Below are positions 1 through 58,659 of a stretch of 58,659 bases of DNA, in pieces. Made by a program: the position numbers and the translations under genes. This stretch comes from a virus. Location: IMG/VR virus record IMGVR_UViG_3300006864_000001, positions 1 through 58,659 of that record; one strand, 5' to 3'. Position 1 is the stretch's first letter. Each line of letters begins with the position of its first letter. The notes under the pieces were generated by a model. The model made no database searches. It worked only from the letters and a program-made list of their open reading frames with translations, and had not been told where the DNA came from.

Positions 1-123
1 GCATTCTCAACGTCCTCATACTCACCCAGATTGTTCCAGCTGTCCACCTCCGGAAATATCGCTAGCAGTCTTGCCTCGGCCTGCCAGTCACCACTATCCC
101 GCTTCTTTGCTGTAGTGATGACA
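1..123. repeat. Direct terminal repeat copy 1 (assembly circularisation overlap or terminal redundancy)
   Basis: nt 1-123 recur verbatim at 58537-58659. Confidence 0.95.
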
Positions 124-263
124 ATCAAGCGCTCTACGGTTTCGTTGTCATTGTAGTAACTCAAGGCGGTAAACGTCTTCCCAGTTCCGACACCTCCTTT
201 GAGAATGCAGCCGTTGCGCATCTCACCGACTGCTTGTTTCTGGTGCGGCATGAGCTCGATCAT
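1..263 (-). CDS. SF2 (SNF2/DEAD-like) helicase, 5' part; continues through the circular junction into 57669..58536
   Basis: Minus-strand translation from ATG at 263: MIELMPHQKQAVGEMRNGCILKGGVGTGKTFTAL (Walker A). The frame is open to nt 1 and joins the ORF at the window end via the repeat (376 aa in total). Confidence 0.8.
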   Translation of the reverse strand, partial: MIELMPHQKQAVGEMRNGCILKGGVGTGKTFTALSYYNDNETVERLIVITTAKKRDSGDWQAEARLLAIFPEVDSWNNLGEYEDVEN

Positions 264-6829: not shown

Positions 6830-7633
6830 TTAGAACGGAGTATCGCCGCGAGTGATCGCCATCTGCTCGGACGCCTGATGAATCATGACTGGCTCAGGTT
6901 CTGTGAACATGGCGGATATCGCGCTGTCCGGCACGTCCATGTACTTCCTCTCGAGCTCGTCTTCGCGAATGGTTACGTAGATCGATTTGAGGTAGGCCTT
7001 CACGCCTGTCTTGCCACTGACCTCCCACTGGTGCGGTCGTATGATCATGTCGACGTTTTCGATCTCGGCCCAGTCGAGAATTGGTAGCATGCTCTCGTCA
7101 AGGGACGTCTTGCCCTTGGTGGTGATCATCACAACCCGTGGCGGCTGGCCGGCCCCGTAATGCACAGCCACTTCGAGTCGGGGCTGAGGCTTCGCGTCCT
7201 CTTCCTCAAGCCGTGGCTGAAGGTACTTAACGTTCCAGCCATCTTTGAGCATGGCGTCGGCGGTATCGTCGTCAAGGAGAACGTTGAAGTTGCGCTTGCC
7301 TTTGGCGTTGAATCGTCCTTCGGCGCCGGCGAAGTTGCGGAATATGATCCGAGCATCTTCGATGACTACTGGCTGCAGTCTGCTAACCATATTATTTCCT
7401 CTCAGCAAAGCGCGTAAACGCCAGCGTCCTTTTCCGGTCCCGCGACCGCATGATACGCAAGCATCGCCCACGATTTGATGTGCGTGCTTGCGTATTTCAA
7501 CCTGTGATTCTTGACATTTCGAGCAGGTCTGACCTTTGTGATCTTCTTCGTCAAACTTTCGTCCTTTGCCGAAGTATGACCAAGAGTCTTCGTCATCTAC
7601 CCAGTTATGACCGGTCAAACCGCAAGCCATCAT
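6830..7633 (-). CDS. ssDNA-binding protein candidate (T7 gp2.5 / DUF2815-like) with an N-terminal zinc ribbon
   Basis: CSKCQ..CVSCG at the N-terminus. ARIIFRNFAG...GKTGVKAYLKSIYV resembles the gp2.5-like OB fold, and the protein ends ...GDTPF (terminal aromatic residue as in gp2.5). ATGA coupling at 7633. An internal start at 7390 with GAGAGGAAA is also possible. Confidence 0.55.
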   Translation of the reverse strand: MMACGLTGHNWVDDEDSWSYFGKGRKFDEEDHKGQTCSKCQESQVEIRKHAHQIVGDACVSCGRGTGKGRWRLRALLRGNNMVSRLQPVVIEDARIIFRNFAGAEGRFNAKGKRNFNVLLDDDTADAMLKDGWNVKYLQPRLEEEDAKPQPRLEVAVHYGAGQPPRVVMITTKGKTSLDESMLPILDWAEIENVDMIIRPHQWEVSGKTGVKAYLKSIYVTIREDELERKYMDVPDSAISAMFTEPEPVMIHQASEQMAITRGDTPF

Positions 7634-16943: not shown

Positions 16944-19900
16944 CTAGCTGGTGAACCATTCAAAGTCACCGTAATTGGAGATATTCGTGACAGCCGCATC
17001 CACGAGCTTCGTGAAATATGACATGTCGATTGATTCTTCTAGCTCCTCATCAATCCCGAACTTCAGGACGTGAGCTTCCTTCCAGAAGTGACCCTTGGTG
17101 CCGGAAGCCGCGTGGAATGCGCCGTCCTTACCCCGGAGTAGAGTGCCTCCGCCGGTTCCCGCGAGGACAGGAACGAATGCGCCCGCTCGTCCGACGAAGC
17201 GAGGCTCTCCATCGCCGAAATCAAGGTAGAGAGCAGTCGTGACAGTCTTTGTCTCAGTGAAGTCATGATAATTCAGAGGTTCCTTACTGAATAGAGTTTT
17301 GAAGACGTAAGGGTGCTGGAACTGTGCTCCGGTTGCCGTCCAAGTGCCATCGTGCTTCTTGGCGACGTAGACGGCGTCATTGACGAGACAGAACTTGGAA
17401 TATGTCTCTTCATGTTCAAAGTCGTAGCCATATTGTTGGCCGAATTCCATTACGAAGTTGACGATCTCCGGCGTTGCATCGGGGATCTTGATCGAATCGG
17501 TCTTAATATGAACGACCTTGAAGCCCTGCTTCTGGACCGCCTCTTTCAAGTCGATCATGAACAGGGCACCGCGCTTGGCGACGATGTTGTCTTTGTTACG
17601 CGGGTCACGGAACGGGTTGTCGAAGCTTGCTGATGTGAGACCGTAGACGATGTTGATTACGATCTTCAGCGCATAGGATAGCGCTGTGGCATCGTCTTCC
17701 GAATTGAGGTAAGGTTCGAGGGCACCGGAGAGCATTTTTCGAGCTGCAGTGTAATCCTTACGCTTGATGGCGATGCGAGCGGCCTTGAGATCTGCGAAAT
17801 TCTTCGTATAAGGACCGAATAGATCCAGCAGTTCAATCGACGTCGGGTGCATTGACGCAACGTCCAGCACGGCGACGTTTGAGTACATGCCAGGTTCGGC
17901 ATAAACATAGCCGCCCTCGCCTGTGATCTCACCCTTATACTCGCTCTTCCCGAATCCGTACGTATACCCCGGAAATAGCTCTGATAGATCTGTGTAGTTG
18001 AACTTCTCCTGCGGTCGCCTGTCGTCACCGAATATGATCCTCGCTGTGAGTTTCTGAGTGGTGTCGTTGACGGACATGCCGGCCATGTCTGCCAGGATCT
18101 GACGCGCTACGAAATCCTGCTTGCGGTCCTCGAAGACCTGTTCGGTTGTGATGACGTCGTTTGCGCAGTAGTCGAGCACATCAACCCACAAAGGCTCATC
18201 GACTGGACAGTCCCAGGGATGTCCGAGCTCCTTGTGGTTGAGTCCGAGCTCGATTTGGAATCTCTTCAGACCCTGCTTCTTGCTTGAGAAGTCGTAAATA
18301 TCGGCATACGACAATCCATACGCATCGCCGAACATCGACCCTTGCTCGCCATTGATGATCCGCTGGCTGAGTTTGAAGAGGGCCTCGTTGCTGTACCCCA
18401 TCACTCGAGCGTACAAAATATGGTTGTCGTACTTGCGGTTGTTGAATCCCACGAGCTTGAACTTGCAGAGATCCTCGATAGCAGGGCCGCTAGGATTGAG
18501 CATTTTGACGACGTTGGCATCGCCCGCGTACTTCCAGCACACCACGAAGAGATTTGGAAATACCTCAACGTCGTAGAACACAAGCCGTTCGTCCATCGGC
18601 TCAGGCTCTACCGACTTCTGAGCTGACTCCGACGCGAACTTCATGGCCATGACCGTCTTGACGCAGTACAACGAATGGTTCGTCGAGTTGTTGGCGAATG
18701 CCAGAATTCGCCCGCGCATGTCTGTCACGTCGTACGGAAGGCCGGAATTGAACGCGTCTTCGAGGATTTTCCAGATGAAGTCAACGCTTGACTTCGTTCC
18801 CGGATGAATTTCCTTCCGGAGGTTTTTCAGGATCAAAGCCCGCAAACCCTGCTCACTCTGGATAACTTTTGAATCGAGCATCTTCTCTTCCTTGATCGGC
18901 AAGCCTCCGGTGATGAGGGCGACTGGAATATCATTGCACTTGGTCAGCTTGCGTCGAAGTGAGGCTTCTCCCGTGAAGATTTTGACTTCGATTCCTTCGG
19001 CAAAGACACGACCAAGTTTCGAGACATCTCCATCATACAGGTAATGAAGGTGTATTCCTGCCTCGCCCTTACTGAATTCTGCATACGTTGCTGGCCAGAG
19101 GCTAGCTGCCTCAAGGTTTTTCTCGAGACTTTTAGCACCATTGTCTCCTTTCAGGTCAAAATCTATAACGACGTGCTGCTCGCCAGGCTTGACGTAGTGA
19201 ATCTTAGAGGTGTCAAGCTCTGCGAGCGTCGTCTTAACATTAGACCATTTCCGACCAGGAGTTTCATCCTCATTGGCATACTGCGCCGGCATATCAGCCA
19301 GCAGAGTATCGAGCAGGGAAGTCTCGACGTCCATGACTAGTGACGGCTCAGACTTGATCATCATAAGGTTAGGTCCTAGCTTATCGTGCTTGAATCCGGA
19401 GAACCAGCTGCGAATAAGAACGCCGTCGACACGCGCTCGCTCTTCGAATTTGTCGAAGTAGTTCCGCAATTCATCACGAAACTTAGACCGGTTAAGCGTC
19501 CAGTCGTAACCGCTTTCCTCACAGAACGCTTTGTATAGATTCCAGGCCTGAAGGAGCGTAGTGCCGTCTTGCTCCTTGAACAGGTCAAATTGTGACAGCA
19601 TGAAGTTATAGAATATGTCGCTTCTGAGGATCATATCGACAGGTCGATAAGTCGAGTAGTAGTTCTTTCCTAGTCGACGATATAGACGCAGGCAGTGATA
19701 TGCAATTGCGCCGAGTTCGAATCCAATTTGCGCCGTTGTTGCCGCATATTCTTCCGCCGGGATTTTTTCGCCCGTGGGGTGTACGTCGATCAAGCGCCTG
19801 ATGAGACCCGATTTTGCATCCGTAATGCGAACCGACTGGTTAGAGCCGATAAACAAGAACGCAAATATCTTGCTTGTGTAGGTGGTCTTGTACTTCTCGT

Positions 19901-20660
19901 TGATGACCAAATCTTCGTGGGATATGATCGAGTTAAGACGAGTGTTATCTTCGATCTTCGACAAGTCACCATCATGCTGAATTGCAACGAGCGGATTACC
20001 CCTAAACGCTTCCGTGGCAAACGGATTATTCGCGGTAGTTATAGCTTTCGCGTCGAACGCGGCGTAGTAACCGACGAACAACTGCTGCAGAATATTTAGG
20101 AACGTCGACTTGCCTGTCCCGGCCTCACCATACAACACGAAGAATTTCTGAATATGCCTAGAGTCGCCTGCTAGTATTGCACCGATTCCCCATTCGAGCT
20201 TACGACGCTCTTCGACAGAATATAGCACACTCATCAGACGATCGTACGCCACGATCGATCCATCTTCGATGGAATACGGCAAACGCTTTGAACTGTAATC
20301 CGCCTTCCTTGGCGGCGTATTTGCGAAGGCTAGCTTCGCGTCTAGATGATGGTTCGAATCCGGCAAGTTTCCGCAATAACTGCGAAATTCCTGCCATAGC
20401 TTGCTCCTGTAGCTCCCGAGAGTCCGAACGTGGACCGACACATCCGGACTCTCGAGTTCGTCAGCACGCTTGTAGAGATCGGCGTCAAGCAGTCGTTGGA
20501 CATCAAATTCATCCGTTGACCACAGGCCCGCTTCTTCATCCCAGATTGCATAGAAAGAGCCACCGCGAACCATCAGGTCGGACGAGCGGCGAACCGTAAA
20601 GTCTGGGTAAACCTCGACTCCACTCTTCGTCACCCGGTCTCTGACCTGATAGAAGTCCAT
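16944..20660 (-). CDS. Fusion replicase: SF3 (D5-like) helicase + AEP primase-polymerase + family B DNA polymerase with 3'-5' exonuclease
   Basis: 1238 aa. Walker A YGEAGTGKST. AEP motifs VVIDFDLK and EAGIHLHY. Exo I FYDVEVF, Exo II GFNNRKYDNHIL, Exo III YCANDV. PolB motif A LDVASMHPT, motif B KIVINIVYG, motif C HIKTDSI. Confidence 0.85.
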   Translation of the reverse strand: MDFYQVRDRVTKSGVEVYPDFTVRRSSDLMVRGGSFYAIWDEEAGLWSTDEFDVQRLLDADLYKRADELESPDVSVHVRTLGSYRSKLWQEFRSYCGNLPDSNHHLDAKLAFANTPPRKADYSSKRLPYSIEDGSIVAYDRLMSVLYSVEERRKLEWGIGAILAGDSRHIQKFFVLYGEAGTGKSTFLNILQQLFVGYYAAFDAKAITTANNPFATEAFRGNPLVAIQHDGDLSKIEDNTRLNSIISHEDLVINEKYKTTYTSKIFAFLFIGSNQSVRITDAKSGLIRRLIDVHPTGEKIPAEEYAATTAQIGFELGAIAYHCLRLYRRLGKNYYSTYRPVDMILRSDIFYNFMLSQFDLFKEQDGTTLLQAWNLYKAFCEESGYDWTLNRSKFRDELRNYFDKFEERARVDGVLIRSWFSGFKHDKLGPNLMMIKSEPSLVMDVETSLLDTLLADMPAQYANEDETPGRKWSNVKTTLAELDTSKIHYVKPGEQHVVIDFDLKGDNGAKSLEKNLEAASLWPATYAEFSKGEAGIHLHYLYDGDVSKLGRVFAEGIEVKIFTGEASLRRKLTKCNDIPVALITGGLPIKEEKMLDSKVIQSEQGLRALILKNLRKEIHPGTKSSVDFIWKILEDAFNSGLPYDVTDMRGRILAFANNSTNHSLYCVKTVMAMKFASESAQKSVEPEPMDERLVFYDVEVFPNLFVVCWKYAGDANVVKMLNPSGPAIEDLCKFKLVGFNNRKYDNHILYARVMGYSNEALFKLSQRIINGEQGSMFGDAYGLSYADIYDFSSKKQGLKRFQIELGLNHKELGHPWDCPVDEPLWVDVLDYCANDVITTEQVFEDRKQDFVARQILADMAGMSVNDTTQKLTARIIFGDDRRPQEKFNYTDLSELFPGYTYGFGKSEYKGEITGEGGYVYAEPGMYSNVAVLDVASMHPTSIELLDLFGPYTKNFADLKAARIAIKRKDYTAARKMLSGALEPYLNSEDDATALSYALKIVINIVYGLTSASFDNPFRDPRNKDNIVAKRGALFMIDLKEAVQKQGFKVVHIKTDSIKIPDATPEIVNFVMEFGQQYGYDFEHEETYSKFCLVNDAVYVAKKHDGTWTATGAQFQHPYVFKTLFSKEPLNYHDFTETKTVTTALYLDFGDGEPRFVGRAGAFVPVLAGTGGGTLLRGKDGAFHAASGTKGHFWKEAHVLKFGIDEELEESIDMSYFTKLVDAAVTNISNYGDFEWFTS

Positions 20661-20675: not shown

Positions 20676-21221
20676 CTAATACATCATGTTTTCTGTCATG
20701 TAAGCGCTCATCTGGAGCCAAAGCTCGACGTTACGCTGATCTTGATTCGGAATCTCGAGTGGGAATATTCCTCCTCGGCCAGACGGTCCATACGCACGAT
20801 CATTGAAGCGATTGAGCTTGCGCTCTATTCGCCACATGTCAGTAGGAAGTATGCGTTTATCGTTAAGATGAACTAGACCGAGGTTAATCAAGAATTGCTT
20901 AAACCACCAGCCAACAGTTCGATCAACCATGAAATCGGCTCTTTTGGAAATTCCGATCAGCACCTCAAATATAGAAGCGTCTGAGGCGAGAAGTTCATCC
21001 CAAGTAGCCAGGCCTGTAACGACATCCATTTCTTTGATGAATTCGTTACGAAGCTCGCTACCATCCGCATTTCGATTAATGTCCTGCGGAATGATAGCGT
21101 TGAAGAGTTTCTGATGCATAATGTCACATAGCTTCAAATATGACAACTGCGAATCCGAGTCCCGAACAGTAAATACTTGATCGTAAAGCCAGCAGAAATA
21201 TCGCTGGCTCAGATCTCGCAC
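20676..21221 (-). CDS. Conserved phage protein of unknown function
   Basis: 181 aa. Motifs DINRNADGSELR, GRGGIFPL and DQRNVELWLQM recall a widespread family often adjacent to phage replication genes. Confidence 0.6.
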   Translation of the reverse strand: MRDLSQRYFCWLYDQVFTVRDSDSQLSYLKLCDIMHQKLFNAIIPQDINRNADGSELRNEFIKEMDVVTGLATWDELLASDASIFEVLIGISKRADFMVDRTVGWWFKQFLINLGLVHLNDKRILPTDMWRIERKLNRFNDRAYGPSGRGGIFPLEIPNQDQRNVELWLQMSAYMTENMMY

Positions 21222-22081
21222 TTCTCACCTCTTTTCTTAGAGTTAGGATTGCCGTAATTGAGAACGGCTTCCACGTATTCCGTTCGATTCAGGACGATGT
21301 CGAAATCAGCTTCCAGCTTGTGATTCCGCACGTACTGAATATACGGATCGAGTGAGACCCCGCCAAAGTCTTCGATCCTAAGCGGTCCGGTAATTCCGTC
21401 AAAGGTCCGGATCGGATCATCCTTATCGTCGACTAGGACGTTGTCGCCAGCGTAGTAAGTTACACTGATTTTGTTGTAGTGTTCGTAGGCCTCTTCGTTG
21501 AATTCGGCACTATCTATTCGGAAGGGTCTGGATTCGTCTCGGTCTGCGGGAGGCCAGATGATGACTCCGTCGAGACCATCTCGATTTCGTCCCTGGATGG
21601 ATCCTTCTGCCACCGTTCGATGGATTCCTGAATTTGAGCGAACCGAACTTTCTGCGCGGTAGTTTTCGGAAAGTGATATCCCATCTCTCTCGCGAATTCC
21701 CTCAGTCGTACCGGGCCAAGCGGGATCGGATCCAAGATCGGATTCGTCGTTGTTTCCGCCAGCGCCCTCACCTTCCACGCGTCCGTCTTCGTCGGGTCCA
21801 TATTCTCCGGAAGGATCACCGTATCCCAGTTCAGCGGCTCGTGCGAGCCCTGCTCGGTAAGCGAGGTATCCTGAGTCATTGGTGCCAAGCTTGGCCAGGT
21901 CGGCATCTGCTCGAAGACGGTAATGTTGCCGGACGGATTCAATTTCGGCATCAGCGGAAGCCTGAACTCGGTTGCGTAGAAGTAGATAACCGAGAATACC
22001 CCCAGCAACACAGCCACCCACAGCACCGAGAACAAAAGAGGGTGCATGCATATGACGGACATTGATTTTCACGCCTTTCAT
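21209..22081 (-). CDS. Membrane-anchored hypothetical protein
   Basis: 290 aa with an N-terminal TM helix (FVLGAVGGCVAGGILGYLLL) and an acidic low-complexity middle. Confidence 0.6.
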   Translation of the reverse strand: MKGVKINVRHMHAPSFVLGAVGGCVAGGILGYLLLRNRVQASADAEIESVRQHYRLRADADLAKLGTNDSGYLAYRAGLARAAELGYGDPSGEYGPDEDGRVEGEGAGGNNDESDLGSDPAWPGTTEGIRERDGISLSENYRAESSVRSNSGIHRTVAEGSIQGRNRDGLDGVIIWPPADRDESRPFRIDSAEFNEEAYEHYNKISVTYYAGDNVLVDDKDDPIRTFDGITGPLRIEDFGGVSLDPYIQYVRNHKLEADFDIVLNRTEYVEAVLNYGNPNSKKRGEKCEI

Positions 22082-22082
22082 A

Positions 22083-22955
22083 TCAGATCCGGATTACGCC
22101 GTCGACATTGAAGTCGAGGAGGATGCTGGCCTCTAGCCCGTTAACGAACTCACGAGCGCTTTCGTTGTACCGATCGTAAAGACCGAAGTCAACGAAGCCG
22201 TCACCAGTTTCGCTGTCCCTCTTCCAGCCCACGACCTGACCGGACTGCGTACGCTCCAGACCGAGGGACTCATAGATCTCGTTCAGAAATATGTAACCGT
22301 AGGCGTTAAGACGGTTGTTCGCCCACTCCTGCTGACTGCGCAGGAATATGTGATTGTACTCCGCCGTGTTGGTCCAGTTACGCGAAGTTGCGTCGAAGAA
22401 TCGCGCGTATGGTGACGGGATCTGATCACTCAAATCGATGACTTCGCCGGTCTCTTTGCCTTCGGCGTCAAATATGCGCATCTTCTTGACACCGCGATAG
22501 AGCTCGAGTTCCTTCTCCTCACCGATCTCGTCCTGAACGCGCTTGCGGTAGGCCTTGTAGCCCGCGTCGAGGACGCCATACGCTGCAACGAGTGCGGACT
22601 GACGCTTGAGCATGATGCCGTGGCCAGCCAGCACGCAGGATATGGATACGGCACCGAGAACGATTGCTGGTCCGTAGTTCTTGGCGAGCTCGGCGCCGGC
22701 CTCGATCCAGATTTCTCCGGTCTTCTTAGCAAGCTCGTTCTTGGTTAGCTCCTGACCGCCATCATTGGTTAGCGTGTCAACACGCTCCTTGGCGGAACTG
22801 GCGATGCCCTGAGACTTGAGAGCCGCCTTTCCGACGAAAATCGCGGTCGCGACGAAACCGACTACGCCGGCGCCCGTCAAGATTGTTGGTGCATTCTGCT
22901 TCAACGCACCTCGCACGGAGCCTAGAGCTCGCGTACTGAGTTTCGAGATGTTCAC
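22083..22955 (-). CDS. Membrane-anchored protein (DUF6353-like), paralogue of 26256..27071
   Basis: 290 aa, GTG start with a TAAGGA RBS. NAPTILTGAGVVGFVATAIFVGKAALK aligns with NSPTILSGMAVAGVVGTVVLAVKATPK. Confidence 0.6.
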   Translation of the reverse strand: MNISKLSTRALGSVRGALKQNAPTILTGAGVVGFVATAIFVGKAALKSQGIASSAKERVDTLTNDGGQELTKNELAKKTGEIWIEAGAELAKNYGPAIVLGAVSISCVLAGHGIMLKRQSALVAAYGVLDAGYKAYRKRVQDEIGEEKELELYRGVKKMRIFDAEGKETGEVIDLSDQIPSPYARFFDATSRNWTNTAEYNHIFLRSQQEWANNRLNAYGYIFLNEIYESLGLERTQSGQVVGWKRDSETGDGFVDFGLYDRYNESAREFVNGLEASILLDFNVDGVIRI

Positions 22956-26255: not shown

Positions 26256-27071
26256 CTAGAGCTTGGAGTACGCCTCGATTGGAAGACCAGCGTATCCCAC
26301 AGCCAGACACGGGCGGTTGTCTGCAGAGATGTGGCTCGAGAAGACAATCTGGACCGTATGCTCGATGTTGAATCCAAGTGCATCGCCGAGAGTTGTCGAA
26401 TCCAGCCCCAGAAGTCTCCAGAACTCGTTGAGGGAAGCATACAGGTCCTGAAATATGCTCGCGTTGATGTCATTCGCGCAACGCCGGATCGTCTCTGCGT
26501 CACTTTTGAAATACCGACCTGACAACGTCTCGTAGCATAGTTGATCACCCCCGCTGGTGATGATGACCTGCGAGTCCTTGACCGGATTCTCCTCGATGTG
26601 CCTCTGCACCACCGCATCGTGGACCTTCCCCGCTTTGGTGACGCCGATCTGCTTGACGACCTCGTCCTTGTATTCCCGGAAAGCTGTGTCGGCGAGGGTA
26701 TAGGCACCCAGCAGTGCCGCGTTGCGCCTCAAGCCGATCTGGTTCGCGCCGATGATGCAAGCGATGGTTGCTGTGCCGGAGATTGCGGCTGGCAAATATA
26801 GCTTCCAGGTTGCCTGTACGATCTCCTTACTCGTTAGAGGAACATAATCGTCGACAGGGATGCCTTTTGTATGTGCATCTGCCTGAGCTTCAGTCCAGAC
26901 GTTCTTCGAGATCTCTGCTTCGCTGACGGAAACCGTAGCCTTCGGAGTCGCCTTGACCGCTAGGACAACAGTACCGACAACACCGGCCACGGCCATTCCT
27001 GAGAGAATCGTCGGCGAATTCATGCCGATCGAACGCGCGATTCGACGCGCTAGTATTGGAATTTGCATCAT
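26256..27071 (-). CDS. Membrane-anchored protein (DUF6353-like), paralogue of 22083..22955
   Basis: ORF 26256..27191; start at MMQIPILARR (GGAGAA RBS). Confidence 0.6.
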   Translation of the reverse strand: MMQIPILARRIARSIGMNSPTILSGMAVAGVVGTVVLAVKATPKATVSVSEAEISKNVWTEAQADAHTKGIPVDDYVPLTSKEIVQATWKLYLPAAISGTATIACIIGANQIGLRRNAALLGAYTLADTAFREYKDEVVKQIGVTKAGKVHDAVVQRHIEENPVKDSQVIITSGGDQLCYETLSGRYFKSDAETIRRCANDINASIFQDLYASLNEFWRLLGLDSTTLGDALGFNIEHTVQIVFSSHISADNRPCLAVGYAGLPIEAYSKL

Positions 27072-27175
27072 TTCTCCATGAATTTGACTAGCTTGTCGAA
27101 CTTGGAAATCGCTTCCCAGAACCTGTCGGCGTCGTGGTCTGCTACTTCGACGTCCATCTCGACTGAGAATTTCAT
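27068..27175 (-). CDS. Tiny acidic protein (35 aa)
   Basis: Read by eye: MKFSVEMDVEVADHDADRFWEAISKFDKLVKFMEK; overlap-coupled at both ends. Confidence 0.3.
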   Translation of the reverse strand: MKFSVEMDVEVADHDADRFWEAISKFDKLVKFMEK

Positions 27176-27312
27176 GACACTTCGTACCCATCCCAGTCGA
27201 TGAGACCGTTCAGGTACGCCTCGGATAGCGCGTAGCAGCCAAAATGCTCGTCGACATTTTCGCGGTTGGTTCGAAGGGCGGCGAGGCTGTCTTCATTCAT
27301 GGCGATGTACAT
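27172..27312 (-). CDS. Small protein (46 aa)
   Basis: Read by eye: MYIAMNEDSLAALRTNRENVDEHFGCYALSEAYLNGLIDWDGYEVS, with a GAAGGAG RBS. Confidence 0.4.
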   Translation of the reverse strand: MYIAMNEDSLAALRTNRENVDEHFGCYALSEAYLNGLIDWDGYEVS

Positions 27313-53183: not shown

Positions 53184-55862
53184 CTAGCCTCCTTTACGAT
53201 GAAGAGCAGCATCTAGTGTGCTGACTGGAATACCCAGTGAATCGGCTACTTCGGCCTGCGTAAAGCCAGACGCGAGCCGTGCTTCTGCTAGCGCTAGCTT
53301 AGAAGGAGTTACTTCTAGAGTGGCGCGAGGTGTTGCTAGTTCTCTAATTCGTTCCGTGTTTGCGTTCTCGAGAATGCTACGCAGCCTGCTAGTTGTAATA
53401 GCGCCAGCCTGTATAGCAGCCCATTGTTGATCGGTTATGTGGATCTCTTGCTTCTTAGCGCCAACGCGATCGCGAGCAGTGTTTAGTGCCTGACCTTTAA
53501 TCTTTTTAAGGTTGGCGTTCTCCATGCCCGGGTTGTCCCTGATCTTCGCTGCCACCATGGCATTGGCTAGCAACTGCGCTTGCCGTTCTAGTGGCTTGTT
53601 CTTGAGCGCTAGATTAAGGGCGCTATTCAGTTGTGCCACTTCATGCTTGTACGTTAGCGCTGCACTATTCGAGTAATCGATGCGACCTGTAGCGAGTGCT
53701 TCTTTACGAGCAGAGTTGGCCAACGCTTTCAACCTGTTAGAGTGGTTAGCGTAGACCTCTTCTATGGGCATGCCTGACGACAAGGTGTGCGCGTTGTTAG
53801 TCTCGAGCAAAGGCTTGGACGTTGTCAACTTAACAACTGTTTTGCCAGTGTTCTTGTTAACATAACTAGCGCCAGTCTGGACATAGATCTTCTCACCAGA
53901 CTTGGGGTCCACGGATCCGCCTTGTGAGGCCTTACGCAGAACCTTCTCAGGAACCTTAATTGCAGCGTTACCTGATCTGGAGATGATAGTTGATGCGCCT
54001 GCTAGACGACCAGACTTGCCTCGTCCTTGATAGGTCTCTTTGAGCGAGGCTATGCCGTTGTCTACGTATGACTGCCGATAGTTAAGATTGTGTTTCTCGG
54101 CATCGATGACGACCATCGAATGACGAACGGCTCGAGCGAGCTCGTCATTCCTGGCGCCCTTGATTGTCATATCCGTGATAAGGTTTGAGACGTCGCCCAT
54201 TTGCTGCTGCTTAGCTCTTGCCGTCATCGGTACCATACCGGGGTACTCTTTATACGCCTCTTTAGGGTCGAAGTTTTCTAGCCCTTTAAGTGGCGATGTA
54301 GTTTTTAGTTCTCGCTTATCGTTGGGAATGACGAGCACTGTGTCCCCGTCGAAGTCCGCACCAGATAGGCGTTCTGCTACCTTAGGATGAATACCGATAG
54401 CGTCACGAGCTTCGCCGATAGTTGATCTTGATTCGGCATGCTTATTATTTACTCGCACTTCAGGGATCTCAAAAGTTCCCCCATGCGGGAAACGCACCAA
54501 AGCGACAGTAGTACCGTTCCTGAAGTTGGGCGCGTAAACCTCATTTTCTTTCAGCGATTCGATAGGTAGAATAACTCGAGTCGCTTGACCCGGCAAAGCC
54601 GCAGCCTTAAGATGAACAGACGCAGACTCTGCCCCATCAGCAAAAGACTCCAAGAGTTTCTGCTTGACAACGGGGTTTGTCAGCTTTGATATTTCATCGA
54701 ACTCATCTACTCTTGATTTGTAGGCGAGATCGAGTTGTCGTTTTGCTAGACCGGTACTCTGCTTCGCCAAGACCTGACTTGACAGTGAACGAGACCAATC
54801 GTTCCAATCGCCTTCTTCGTTAACGACATTCATCGGTGACTGATGTTGTTTACCATCTTTACCGAGATACGTTTTCTGCCGAACAGTTGCGCCGAACGGG
54901 TTCTCTTCGTCCGACTGCTTCTTCATGGTGTCGAGCTTGTTGCCCGTGTCATGCTTGTTCGTGTTGAACTGAAGGTCGACTCCTGCTGGGAGACCATCTT
55001 TGTACATGGCCATACCTTTAAGGTAATGTGTGCCATCGACAGCGATTCGAACTTGTGCATATCTGGATGTCCCAAGTGAAATATCGGGAACACCAGGACG
55101 AACATAGATAACGCCGTCGGCATTTGTGCCGCCTTGTTCTGCGTAGCGAATTCCGATTCTCTTGGAATCCACGTTGACCGGAGGTTTGACACCGATATAT
55201 GAAAGACCACCATCTTCGCTGTATGCGGCAACGGTCTTGATCTTGTCTGGGTTCTTTACGATGTCCACATATTTAGTTCCTGGTGGAGCAAGAACTTTAA
55301 TTGTGGTTTTCTTATTACCGCCAACCCCAACGTTCGGCGCCTGAATTTTGTGAACTTCGTAACCTCGCTCTTGAAGCAAAGCGACGGCGGTTGAAAGTTT
55401 AGTCTTGCTGATCGCTAGATGATTTTCGGTTCCTTCGCCGATATCGAGATAGCTGCCATCAGCAAGCTTGTCCTTAAGCATGTTCGACGTCGACATCAGA
55501 ACATTGCGCTTCTCCGTAAGCGCTGGATTAAGCAAAGAACGAACCGAAGACTCGTTGATGCCCATTCGTTCGCCAATGGCGACATTGGACATACCTTTAT
55601 TCTTCAGCCGTAGCGCTTGTGCGGCATCGGCTTTCTGCGTTTCGTTCTTAGCGATCGATTTGGCAGCACGAAGTTGCGTGGTAGTGATGCCAAGACCTTT
55701 GGCGATATTGGTGTCTGTCACGCCTTTGGTTTTGAGCTCTGCTACGTAGCCCAAGAAACCGCGATTATGTTCTTGTGGTTCGAGACCCGACCCCCACGGA
55801 TATCGGCCAGATCGGCGAAGGACGCCATAGTGAAGCAGTTCGTCAGCAGCAGCGTCAGCCAT
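53184..55862 (-). CDS. Candidate single-subunit two-barrel RNA polymerase (YonO / RdRP-like) with N- and C-terminal HTH domains
   Basis: 892 aa. LKGMAMYKDGLPAGVDLQFNTNK (beta-like barrel), VALVRFPHGG and SGADFDGDTVLVIPND (DxDGD metal loop). HTHs at VTDTNIAKGLGITTTQL, MSNVAIGERMGINESSV and FTQAEVADSLGIPVSTL. N-terminal LLHYGVLRRSGRYPWGSG. The CDS itself is certain; the confidence refers to the function. Confidence 0.6.
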   Translation of the reverse strand: MADAAADELLHYGVLRRSGRYPWGSGLEPQEHNRGFLGYVAELKTKGVTDTNIAKGLGITTTQLRAAKSIAKNETQKADAAQALRLKNKGMSNVAIGERMGINESSVRSLLNPALTEKRNVLMSTSNMLKDKLADGSYLDIGEGTENHLAISKTKLSTAVALLQERGYEVHKIQAPNVGVGGNKKTTIKVLAPPGTKYVDIVKNPDKIKTVAAYSEDGGLSYIGVKPPVNVDSKRIGIRYAEQGGTNADGVIYVRPGVPDISLGTSRYAQVRIAVDGTHYLKGMAMYKDGLPAGVDLQFNTNKHDTGNKLDTMKKQSDEENPFGATVRQKTYLGKDGKQHQSPMNVVNEEGDWNDWSRSLSSQVLAKQSTGLAKRQLDLAYKSRVDEFDEISKLTNPVVKQKLLESFADGAESASVHLKAAALPGQATRVILPIESLKENEVYAPNFRNGTTVALVRFPHGGTFEIPEVRVNNKHAESRSTIGEARDAIGIHPKVAERLSGADFDGDTVLVIPNDKRELKTTSPLKGLENFDPKEAYKEYPGMVPMTARAKQQQMGDVSNLITDMTIKGARNDELARAVRHSMVVIDAEKHNLNYRQSYVDNGIASLKETYQGRGKSGRLAGASTIISRSGNAAIKVPEKVLRKASQGGSVDPKSGEKIYVQTGASYVNKNTGKTVVKLTTSKPLLETNNAHTLSSGMPIEEVYANHSNRLKALANSARKEALATGRIDYSNSAALTYKHEVAQLNSALNLALKNKPLERQAQLLANAMVAAKIRDNPGMENANLKKIKGQALNTARDRVGAKKQEIHITDQQWAAIQAGAITTSRLRSILENANTERIRELATPRATLEVTPSKLALAEARLASGFTQAEVADSLGIPVSTLDAALHRKGG

Positions 55863-56418
55863 TGTATCCTTCCGCCTTGAGCGATTCTATGTATCTGTCG
55901 AAGACGATGATCTTACTCATGATGTGAGCGATCGTATCTACTTCAGGAATGCTCATTATTATTTCATCGTTTTGATACATGCGAAGCTCTATCTCGATTT
56001 CCCCAGGCTTAACGCCGTATTCGAGACAATACAAAGCCGCATAGATCTCCAGCTGGTGGATTGACCCAGGAATCACGCCAGTTTTGAGATCGTGAATTCG
56101 CAGAAAATCTTTCTTGAATCCGATGGTGTCGGCTGTTCCGTAGCTATTATCCGAGTAATACAGAATTTGTTCGGTAATCATACGAAAGCCAATACCATCG
56201 TTCACGTACATATTAAGCGTCTTACTTGTACGTGGAAGTTTGATTCCGAGTTTAATTGCGTTGTGGGCGAACTCGTGGAGTTCCGTGCCCCGACGCGCCG
56301 CTTGGGCGTTGCGGAAGACTGTCGCCAGTTTCTCGTCGTCGTAGTTTATCCAATGATAGTTGCTGGCGCTGAGAAATGCGTGACGCCCCACAAGATCCGA
56401 ATGCGAGTTGAAGTTCAC
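55855..56418 (-). CDS. PD-(D/E)xK nuclease (RecB/Cas4-like fold)
   Basis: ORF 55855..56460; start at GTG after AAGGAAG. Contains GTADTIGF...LRIHDLKTG (D...D-x-K). Confidence 0.6.
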   Translation of the reverse strand: MNFNSHSDLVGRHAFLSASNYHWINYDDEKLATVFRNAQAARRGTELHEFAHNAIKLGIKLPRTSKTLNMYVNDGIGFRMITEQILYYSDNSYGTADTIGFKKDFLRIHDLKTGVIPGSIHQLEIYAALYCLEYGVKPGEIEIELRMYQNDEIIMSIPEVDTIAHIMSKIIVFDRYIESLKAEGYNG

Positions 56419-56686
56419 GGAGGACGTCTTCCTTGTTTTGCGGATGGATAAAGGCCGCAAAAGACATCGCGTTCATCAGGTCAACGTAGTATTCCTGGTT
56501 TGGCTGTCTGACGGCTGTCGCGGAAGCTTTGCATTCGAGAACGGCCCACTTATCTCCCCAGAGAATCAGTCGGTCCGGTATGCCTTGAACTAGGTTCGGA
56601 TCTAGTTTCTGAATTATGCAGCCAGGGAACATGACGCGAAGTTCGATGACAAGATTTTTTTCAAATTCAGTTTCTATGCGAGCCAT
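56252..56686 (-). CDS. VRR-NUC-like nuclease
   Basis: AAAGGAGG RBS. GIPDRLILWGDKWAVLECK matches the PD-(D/E)xK motif. The last ~50 aa are Arg/Ser/Gly-rich and overlap the next gene by 167 nt. Confidence 0.65.
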   Translation of the reverse strand: MARIETEFEKNLVIELRVMFPGCIIQKLDPNLVQGIPDRLILWGDKWAVLECKASATAVRQPNQEYYVDLMNAMSFAAFIHPQNKEDVLRELQLAFGSCGASRISQRQQLSLDKLRRRETGDSLPQRPSGASGHGTPRVRPQRN

Positions 56687-57668: not shown

Positions 57669-58659
57669 TCATGCGGCAGATCGAAGGTATTCGGTTTGAT
57701 TGAAGTTCCGTTTAGCACAGAGTGACTTCCAGATAGCCACATCAATCATCGCCGAACTTCTAATCACGTAGTACTTCAAATCTGTGAACGATGTATTTAG
57801 GCGATCAGTTCGTCCTTTCGCTTGCTCGAACATTCTGTAAGAGTACGTCAGCGAATAGAAAACCATCGCGTCCGTCTCAATGCAATTCCAGCCCTCTGCC
57901 CCTGAGGCGTATTGTACTAGATACACCCACTCAAGCTGATCGGGAATCGGCTCATGCTTGTGCCCGTTCCATTCGCCGATGTGCGTATCAAGCTGCCTGA
58001 GTATCTCGAGTTCGTAGTCGTAGTTGTAGAAGATGATCAACCTAGGATGCTTGATCATCAGATCCCGAATCGCCAAGATTCTGCTAAGATCGCTATTGAC
58101 GATCCTCCGCATCAAGGCGAACAATTCGCTCACATGCCGGATCGGTCGATTCTCGAACGGATTCCATCGTCTTCGCCAGACAGTGTCAAAAAGCTCTCTG
58201 TCGTATTCCGCGAAAACGTCCACAGTATGCCGGGTCGTGTGTTTCTGGAACGGCATCTCCACAAGAATACTGCGGAGTTCCCGTACAAGCCGCTCCGTCC
58301 CAACATACCGATCCACTTTCGGGTACTTTGCGAAACGCGAGAAAACGACATGCTCGCGCAAGAACTCGGTTCTGTTCTTGTAGAACCCGTTTGCGATGAA
58401 GACTGGAATATAGTCGAGCCAGGTGTCCCCAGGTGTAGCACTCAAGAGCACCCACTGATTCTTCTTGACTATCTTCAGGAACGCCTGTACCCATACGCCC
58501 GATCCCACCACTCTCTGCTCGTCGAAGATGAAGAACGCATTCTCAACGTCCTCATACTCACCCAGATTGTTCCAGCTGTCCACCTCCGGAAATATCGCTA
58601 GCAGTCTTGCCTCGGCCTGCCAGTCACCACTATCCCGCTTCTTTGCTGTAGTGATGACA
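57669..58659 (-). CDS. SF2 (SNF2/DEAD-like) helicase, 3' part (frame open at the window end; continues at 263..1)
   Basis: ORF 57669..58583 extends without a stop to 58659. Motif II FIFDEQRVVG, C-terminal lobe YASGAEGWN, motif VI QAKGRTDR. Confidence 0.85.
   Translation of the reverse strand, partial: VITTAKKRDSGDWQAEARLLAIFPEVDSWNNLGEYEDVENAFFIFDEQRVVGSGVWVQAFLKIVKKNQWVLLSATPGDTWLDYIPVFIANGFYKNRTEFLREHVVFSRFAKYPKVDRYVGTERLVRELRSILVEMPFQKHTTRHTVDVFAEYDRELFDTVWRRRWNPFENRPIRHVSELFALMRRIVNSDLSRILAIRDLMIKHPRLIIFYNYDYELEILRQLDTHIGEWNGHKHEPIPDQLEWVYLVQYASGAEGWNCIETDAMVFYSLTYSYRMFEQAKGRTDRLNTSFTDLKYYVIRSSAMIDVAIWKSLCAKRNFNQTEYLRSAA
58537..58659. repeat. Direct terminal repeat copy 2
   Basis: Identical to nt 1-123. 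Confidence 0.95.

Follow-up and report, generated by a model that had tools for sequence, protein, structure and literature searches.

Can one polypeptide chain furnish a phage with a helicase, a primase and a proofreading DNA polymerase? The question is raised by a gene of an uncultured virus, IMG/VR record IMGVR_UViG_3300006864_000001, whose complete 58,659-bp sequence with direct terminal repeats is the window analyzed here. The gene (P0001) occupies 16944..20660 on the minus strand and runs from ATG to stop through 1238 codons with zero internal stops, an uninterrupted frame exactly at the position given in a preliminary description of the sequence. A purine-rich ribosome-binding site, GAGAGAGGA, is located about 5 nt upstream of the ATG, 15 nt after the preceding gene. 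The preliminary description read three modules in the 1238-aa product: a superfamily 3 (SF3) helicase, an archaeo-eukaryotic primase (AEP) and an exonuclease-proficient family B DNA polymerase (PolB). Their presence in one chain is upheld by Pfam, by a profile alignment to the primase-helicase structure 7ola, by fold models and by homology to GP55 of Lactococcus phage 1706. Very probably the gene product is the replicase of the phage itself, orthologous to the four-in-one enzyme GP55. The homology is full-length, the AEP and PolB folds are recovered, the catalytic residues are conserved, and the genome has no PolA, DnaB-type helicase or Toprim domain.

BLASTP against GP55 (YP_001828703) aligns the two proteins collinearly over residues 1-1232, with 39% identity and E = 0. 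In Kazlauskas et al. (NAR 2016, PMC4889955), GP55 is named as an SF3-AEP-PolB fusion. Zhang et al. (NAR 2025, PMC12205980), under the heading "A four-in-one replicase", found the purified protein to be a DNA polymerase, a 3'-5' exonuclease, an RNA primase and a UTP/dTTP-dependent helicase. According to the same study, GP55 needs a new alpha-helix domain (aHD) that follows the AEP, forms a dimer and replicates ssM13 de novo, and more than 1000 homologues are reported. The helicase-primase-polymerase chain, for which the preliminary description implied novelty, was thus published in 2016 and its activities in 2025. The two proteins share the order SF3 helicase, PriS-like AEP, aHD and PolB with exonuclease, and both carry KTDS in polymerase motif C. 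The replicase of the window is 79 residues shorter, mainly through the lack of the GP55 insertion near residue 1183.

The catalytic residues can be transferred from one protein to the other. Conservation was assessed in an alignment of 110 full-length relatives, one from each of a set of different 50%-identity clusters, with GP55 added. Equivalents of every GP55 residue whose mutation abolished an activity are present in the replicase, and they are conserved in 105-110 of the 110 relatives. In GP55, K189A abolished helicase activity, D509A led to loss of RNA primer synthesis, the double mutant D712A/E714A lost exonuclease activity, and D949A abolished polymerase activity (PMC12205980). The corresponding residues here are K184 (helicase), D502 (primase), D697/E699 (exonuclease) and D933 (polymerase). 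The GP55 mutational data also cover the aHD residues Y655 and F667 (PMC12205980), which correspond to Y643 and F655. The motifs quoted in the preliminary description are all found in the translation, and they are not chance matches, since they are invariant or nearly so in the 110 relatives.

The replicase is an ordinary member of a known phage family, whose architecture was described in 2016 and whose activities were shown in 2025. A PHROGs search places PHROG 4210 ("DNA polymerase", 1304 positions) across residues 1-1237 with E = 0, and to judge from its sequence the protein is an uncultured further member of this GP55-type family. A tblastn search of 50,697 phage records with the replicase matched 389 records, and in 252 of them a single locus spans 80% or more of the query. 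The top match is Gordonia phage Petito at 59% identity, followed by phages of Arthrobacter, Rhodococcus (ReqiPoco6), Streptomyces and Curtobacterium; for CHPC971 and P078, which infect Lactococcus, the identity is 38-41%. The full-length orthologues in Gordonia phage Petito, Arthrobacter phage MediumFry, Rhodococcus phage ReqiPoco6 and Streptomyces phage HotFries, all of PHROG 4210, have 48-59% identity at 100% coverage. Almost all of the phage orthologues matched by tblastn are annotated as "DNA primase/polymerase", and the actinobacteriophage proteins of that name do not differ in kind from the replicase. At E <= 1e-10 the replicase matches at least 8000 clusters of a metagenomic protein collection, and the closest among the matches listed is 87% identical. 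A megablast search of cultured phages for near-identical DNA found just four short matches within the gene, at 77-79% identity.

A long open reading frame of this kind could also be an artefact, with separate genes joined through misassembly or a frameshift. The unusual length of the frame is the one feature in favor of such an origin. Against it, the whole gene reads through unbroken in 79 of 80 independent IMG/VR contigs, and the exception ends at a contig edge; because the single frame recurs in this way, the gene is not an assembly artefact. The 252 isolated phage genomes in which a single locus spans 80% or more of the query, and the full-length protein in 108 of the best 150 representatives of 50%-identity clusters, lead to the same result. 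An artefact was therefore ruled out, with a residual probability that is practically negligible.

Some relatives of about 930-1050 aa are shorter than the replicase, and their end points were mapped on the proteins. In seven of them (P0133, P0140, P0146, P0224, P0264, P0268 and P0272), the homology stops at the equivalent of residue 892-893, and three of these seven end in TGEQ[ST][VI]GR. Relatives P0125, P0167 and P0209 start at residue 310-312. That the break points coincide suggests interruption at conserved sites, for example by an intron or a homing element, rather than random truncation.

The helicase module is the first of the chain; it and the other modules described below are all encoded on the minus strand. 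Residues 1-150 (20211..20660) precede the ATPase and align just before the helicase core of 7ola. This N-terminal region presumably forms a D5_N-like collar, and a Pfam scan of residues 1-150 in isolation matched zero families. The SF3 (D5-type) ATPase core follows at residues 151-310 (19731..20210), where Pfam DUF5906 matches residues 176-289 with E 1.5e-13. The helical C-terminal part of the D5-type helicase comprises residues 311-430 (19371..19730), with Pox_D5 on residues 365-416 (E 3.8e-05) and the 7ola alignment. Both Pfam matches are above the curated cut-offs. Positions 36-434 of the family profile align to 378-778 of 7ola_A, the helicase half of this primase-helicase, with E 6e-17, and the profile also matches the NrS-1 helicase (E 1.4e-06). 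The SF3 assignment is supported by the Pfam families above their cut-offs together with the profile match to 7ola. A Walker A motif (YGEAGTGKST, K184), a Walker B residue (D230), a sensor-1 asparagine (N274) and an arginine finger (RRLIDVHP, R288/R289) are found in the D5-like ATPase core, which by these motifs and profiles is of the SF3 (D5-type) class. K184, N274 and R288/R289 are kept in 109-110 of the 110 relatives, and D230 is likewise conserved.

Does this module unwind DNA in the phage? It is conceivable that the protein belongs to the same family, and that in its actinophage branch one module has drifted in specificity or lost its function; for example, the helicase could be an oligomerization or loading module, with unwinding left to the SF2 helicase or to a host helicase. 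Helicase activity of GP55 is weak and needs the polymerase domain, and size-exclusion chromatography with multi-angle light scattering found GP55 to be a dimer, not the hexamer that is usual for SF3 helicases (PMC12205980). A conserved SF2 helicase also accompanies the replicase in both phages. Such drift is nevertheless improbable: the conserved Walker A motif, sensor and RR finger argue for a working ATPase, and GP55 K189A loses unwinding (PMC12205980). A replicase with all of its modules functional remains the preferred reading.

The primase module is composed of a PriS-like AEP catalytic domain (residues 445-591, 18888..19328) and the aHD (residues 594-683, 18612..18881). The aHD contains Y643 and F655, the equivalents of GP55 Y655 and F667, and the corresponding domain is required by the primase in GP55. 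AEP motif I, VVIDFDLK (D500/D502), and motif II, EAGIHLHY (H537), are present in the translation. D500/D502 and the G535-x-H537 of motif II (sGxGxH) are kept in 107-110 of the 110 relatives. Other invariant AEP residues are E528, E558 and R569/R570. The acidic candidates for motif III are E558 (109 Glu and one Asp among the 110) and D545 (103 of 110). In the family profile, the stretch from motif I to motif II aligns to DID...SGTGLH of the 7ola primase (AEP) domain.

An AlphaFold2 model of residues 430-690, built from 96 sequences, has a mean predicted local distance difference test score (pLDDT) of 93.2. When this model was searched with Foldseek, the ten best matches were all prim-pols of pRN1 or NrS-1, and in the predicted structure the region has the AEP catalytic fold. 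The helical tail, residues 165-254 of the model, matches generic helical repeats alone, in agreement with the description of the aHD in PMC12205980. The AEP and aHD piece, searched against 1.84 billion cluster representatives, retrieved 428 proteins at E <= 0.001. Among the best 150 of these, 108 are at least 1200 aa long and are matched at about residues 430-750; the combination of AEP and aHD thus appears essentially confined to this fusion architecture. The preliminary description counted a lack of profile support for the AEP or SF3 module as grounds for refutation. For SF3, profile support is given by DUF5906, Pox_D5 and 7ola; for the AEP, Pfam is silent, as in that refuting case, and the support comes from the 7ola alignment of motifs I-II and from the fold.

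The PolB module consists of a 3'-5' exonuclease subdomain (residues 690-880, 18021..18593), identified from its Exo motifs and fold, and a polymerase subdomain (residues 881-1238, 16947..18020), identified from motifs A-C, phmmer and Foldseek. The exonuclease motifs are Exo I FYDVEVF (D697/E699), Exo II NNRKYDNHIL (D745) and Exo III YCANDV (Y831/D835), and all five residues are conserved in 110/110 relatives. The polymerase motifs are A, LDVASMHPT (D933); B, KIVINIVYG (K999/N1003/Y1006/G1007); and C, HIKTDS (K1053/D1055). D933 and the four motif B residues are likewise conserved in all 110. The predicted structure of residues 680-1238 has a pLDDT of 95.5, and Foldseek aligns it with the archaeal 9N and KOD polymerases, Pol alpha and E. 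coli Pol II with E 1e-16 to 1e-13. Beyond fragments of the same family, the nearest viral models are compact phage PolBs of 600-760 aa, e.g., that of Lactococcus phage P087. In the model-based fold ranking, the domain groups with the RNA/DNA-primed PolBs and lies nearest to the compact stand-alone phage enzymes. By phmmer, motifs A-C align with those of E. coli Pol II (E 1.6e-05); a Pfam scan of the isolated PolB piece found no significant match. No published clade placement can be drawn from PMC7544198, a study of PolB diversity in which 1706, Lactococcus, Rhodococcus and AEP all go unmentioned.

The fold ranking also bears on how synthesis is started. The PolB could prime itself, either with a protein or without a primer, as do phi29 polymerase and piPolB, and the AEP-like domain would then be a structural relic. 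The PolB is indeed compact (about 560 aa) and has a non-canonical motif C, and the GP55 paper aligned the GP55 PolB with phi29 polymerase (PMC12205980). The best structural matches are, on the other side, the RNA/DNA-primed enzymes 9N, KOD, Pol alpha and Pol II, and the AEP residues D500, D502, H537 and R569/R570 are invariant or nearly so. GP55 D509A loses RNA primer synthesis, and it extends only if it is combined with a primase-proficient, polymerase-deleted mutant (PMC12205980). Self-priming is therefore highly improbable, and a PolB that extends primers made by the AEP is preferred.

The polymerase active site has two unusual residues. Motif A reads SMHP, with H938 (17847..17849) aligned to the tyrosine of SLYPS in Pol II, and this position is histidine in 110/110 relatives. 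Motif C reads KTDS, with K1053 (17502..17504) aligned to the first aspartate of the Pol II GDTDS, and lysine is found in 108 of the 110. Neither the canonical DTDS of motif C nor the SLYPS tyrosine of motif A is present in the replicase. The preliminary description was correct about KTDS in place of DTDS, and this is a trait of the whole family. In other PolBs the tyrosine of motif A is the steric gate for the sugar. At these positions, Enterococcus phage IME-EFm1 has SLYP and NTD in its stand-alone PolB. GP55 carries the same histidine and lysine by alignment, and it is an active polymerase (PMC12205980); the main text of that paper contains none of the terms KTD, DTD and motif C. The two substitutions are the remaining small novelty of the GP55-type family. 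A tentative and rather doubtful idea is that they adapt the enzyme to accepting the very short RNA primers that the neighboring AEP makes, or that they alter sugar or metal selectivity. If this is true, the family is a distinct mechanistic subclass of PolB and not a standard PolB fused to partners.

How would such a protein work? A mechanism can be taken from GP55. The N-terminal D5-type SF3 ATPase would unwind duplex DNA and so provide the ability for strand displacement; in GP55 this module is driven by UTP/dTTP and mediates dimerization (PMC12205980). The central AEP, with the four-helix aHD that follows it, would make short RNA primers de novo; those of GP55 start with GTP, and the preferred site is 5'-CCAAC-3' (PMC12205980). 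The C-terminal PolB would use dNTPs to extend primers of as few as 4 nt and proofread through its 3'-5' exonuclease, and primase and polymerase could cooperate in trans within a dimer. We infer, by analogy at 39% identity, that the four activities, the nucleotide preferences and the dimer state carry over from GP55.

Several points weigh against this reading. At 39% identity, the NTP preference, the priming site and the oligomeric state may differ from those of GP55, and the replicase is without the insertion of about 50 residues that GP55 carries near its C-terminus. The activities of the replicase are predicted from sequence and models and by analogy with GP55. Residues 430-690 match no Pfam family, even at E <= 10, and the primase family PHROG 3022 matches the replicase only at E 0.0014. 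Since Pfam models recognize neither the AEP nor the PolB region, both assignments depend on homology to GP55, on weak matches in sequence and on comparison of folds.

Other replication proteins combine similar activities in different ways. The D5-type AEP primase-helicases, such as poxvirus D5 and the protein of PDB 7ola, have the same two modules in the reverse order. The replicase places the helicase first and the AEP second, which is the reverse of the usual order of primase-helicase fusions, and appends a PolB; the primase is N-terminal in 94% of such fusions (Kazlauskas 2016, PMC4889955). Its AEP lacks a PriL or helix-bundle domain, and the unrelated aHD serves instead. For the NrS-1 prim-pol (PDB 6a9w) and pRN1 ORF904, the sequence identity is as low as 11-14%. 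In these enzymes one active site both primes and elongates, whereas the replicase splits priming (AEP) from elongation (PolB). The sole other helicase-primase-polymerase fusion in the 2016 list is Pas55 of Actinoplanes phage phiAsp2, an SF3 helicase-DnaG primase-PolA protein (PMC4889955). Compared by its published description, Pas55 follows an analogous logic, but its DnaG and PolA modules are not homologous to the AEP and PolB of the replicase.

The rest of the genome is consistent with replication of the 1706 type. By tblastn, about 25 genes match phage 1706 (Fremauxvirus), including the terminase (63% identity), portal, capsid and tail genes and the tape measure; further homologues are those of orf43, orf51 and orf70, the RNA polymerase and a small gene downstream of it. 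By these matches, the genome is that of a distant relative of phage 1706. The G+C content of the window is about 52%, and the cultured phages closest to it infect Actinomycetota, whereas 1706 has 33.7% G+C and a Lactococcus host. The two phages have a set of genomic partners in common: the ssDNA-binding protein GP66, the SF2 helicase GP67, two paired nucleases and a phage RNA polymerase.

The GP66 homologue (6830..7633, minus strand) matches PF24083 Phage_ssDNA_bind (E 5e-65) and PHROG 4787 and has 37% identity to GP66 (E 3e-33); it is a probable replisome partner. The GP67 homologue is found in two pieces, both on the minus strand. The C-terminal 329 aa are encoded at 57669..58658 (39% identity to GP67, E 2e-91; PHROG 62, DNA helicase), and the N-terminal part, with a GVGTGKT P-loop, at 3..263 (E 2e-14 and 35% identity against residues 9-104 of GP67). 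A stretch of sequence common to both pieces (VITTAKKRDSGDW...) marks the direct terminal repeat, and the helicase gene spans the two ends of the record. The nuclease pair (55855..56686, minus strand) comprises homologues of the 1706 orf69 exonuclease and orf68 endonuclease (PHROG 3953, E 1e-76; PHROG 93, E 1e-11; tblastn), and it adjoins the SF2 helicase, as in 1706. A large single-subunit RNA polymerase at 53184..55862 has 38% identity to 1706 orf75.

No PolA, DnaB-type helicase (DnaB_C) or Toprim domain was found in the complete window genome, and no second replicase was found among about 30 larger open reading frames scanned with PHROGs. The minimal replisome proposed in the preliminary description, made of this protein, an ssDNA-binding protein and an SF2 helicase, is borne out by the GP66 and GP67 homologues. 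Since the partners are shared and no other replicase was found, it matches the account of phage 1706 in PMC12205980, and we would add the conserved nuclease pair to it. The replicase gene alone adds little, beyond placing a GP55-type enzyme known from one dairy phage in an actinophage-related uncultured phage as well. The recurring set of ssDNA-binding protein, SF2 helicase, nuclease pair and RNA polymerase supports the idea of a portable, largely host-independent replication module. The GP55 family is also of practical interest for primer-free, proofreading and strand-displacing DNA synthesis, and this orthologue, from a genome of higher G+C, is another candidate.

Two genes directly upstream of the replicase (20676..22081, minus strand) encode proteins of 181 aa (phrog_4678) and 290 aa (phrog_4695), both phage families of unknown function; neither gene has a Pfam match, nor a match in 1706 by tblastn. 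Beyond them, the products of 22083..22955 and 26256..27191, both on the minus strand, are paralogous, since both match phrog_2152 with E about 1e-71, and the first also has 26% identity to 1706 orf51.

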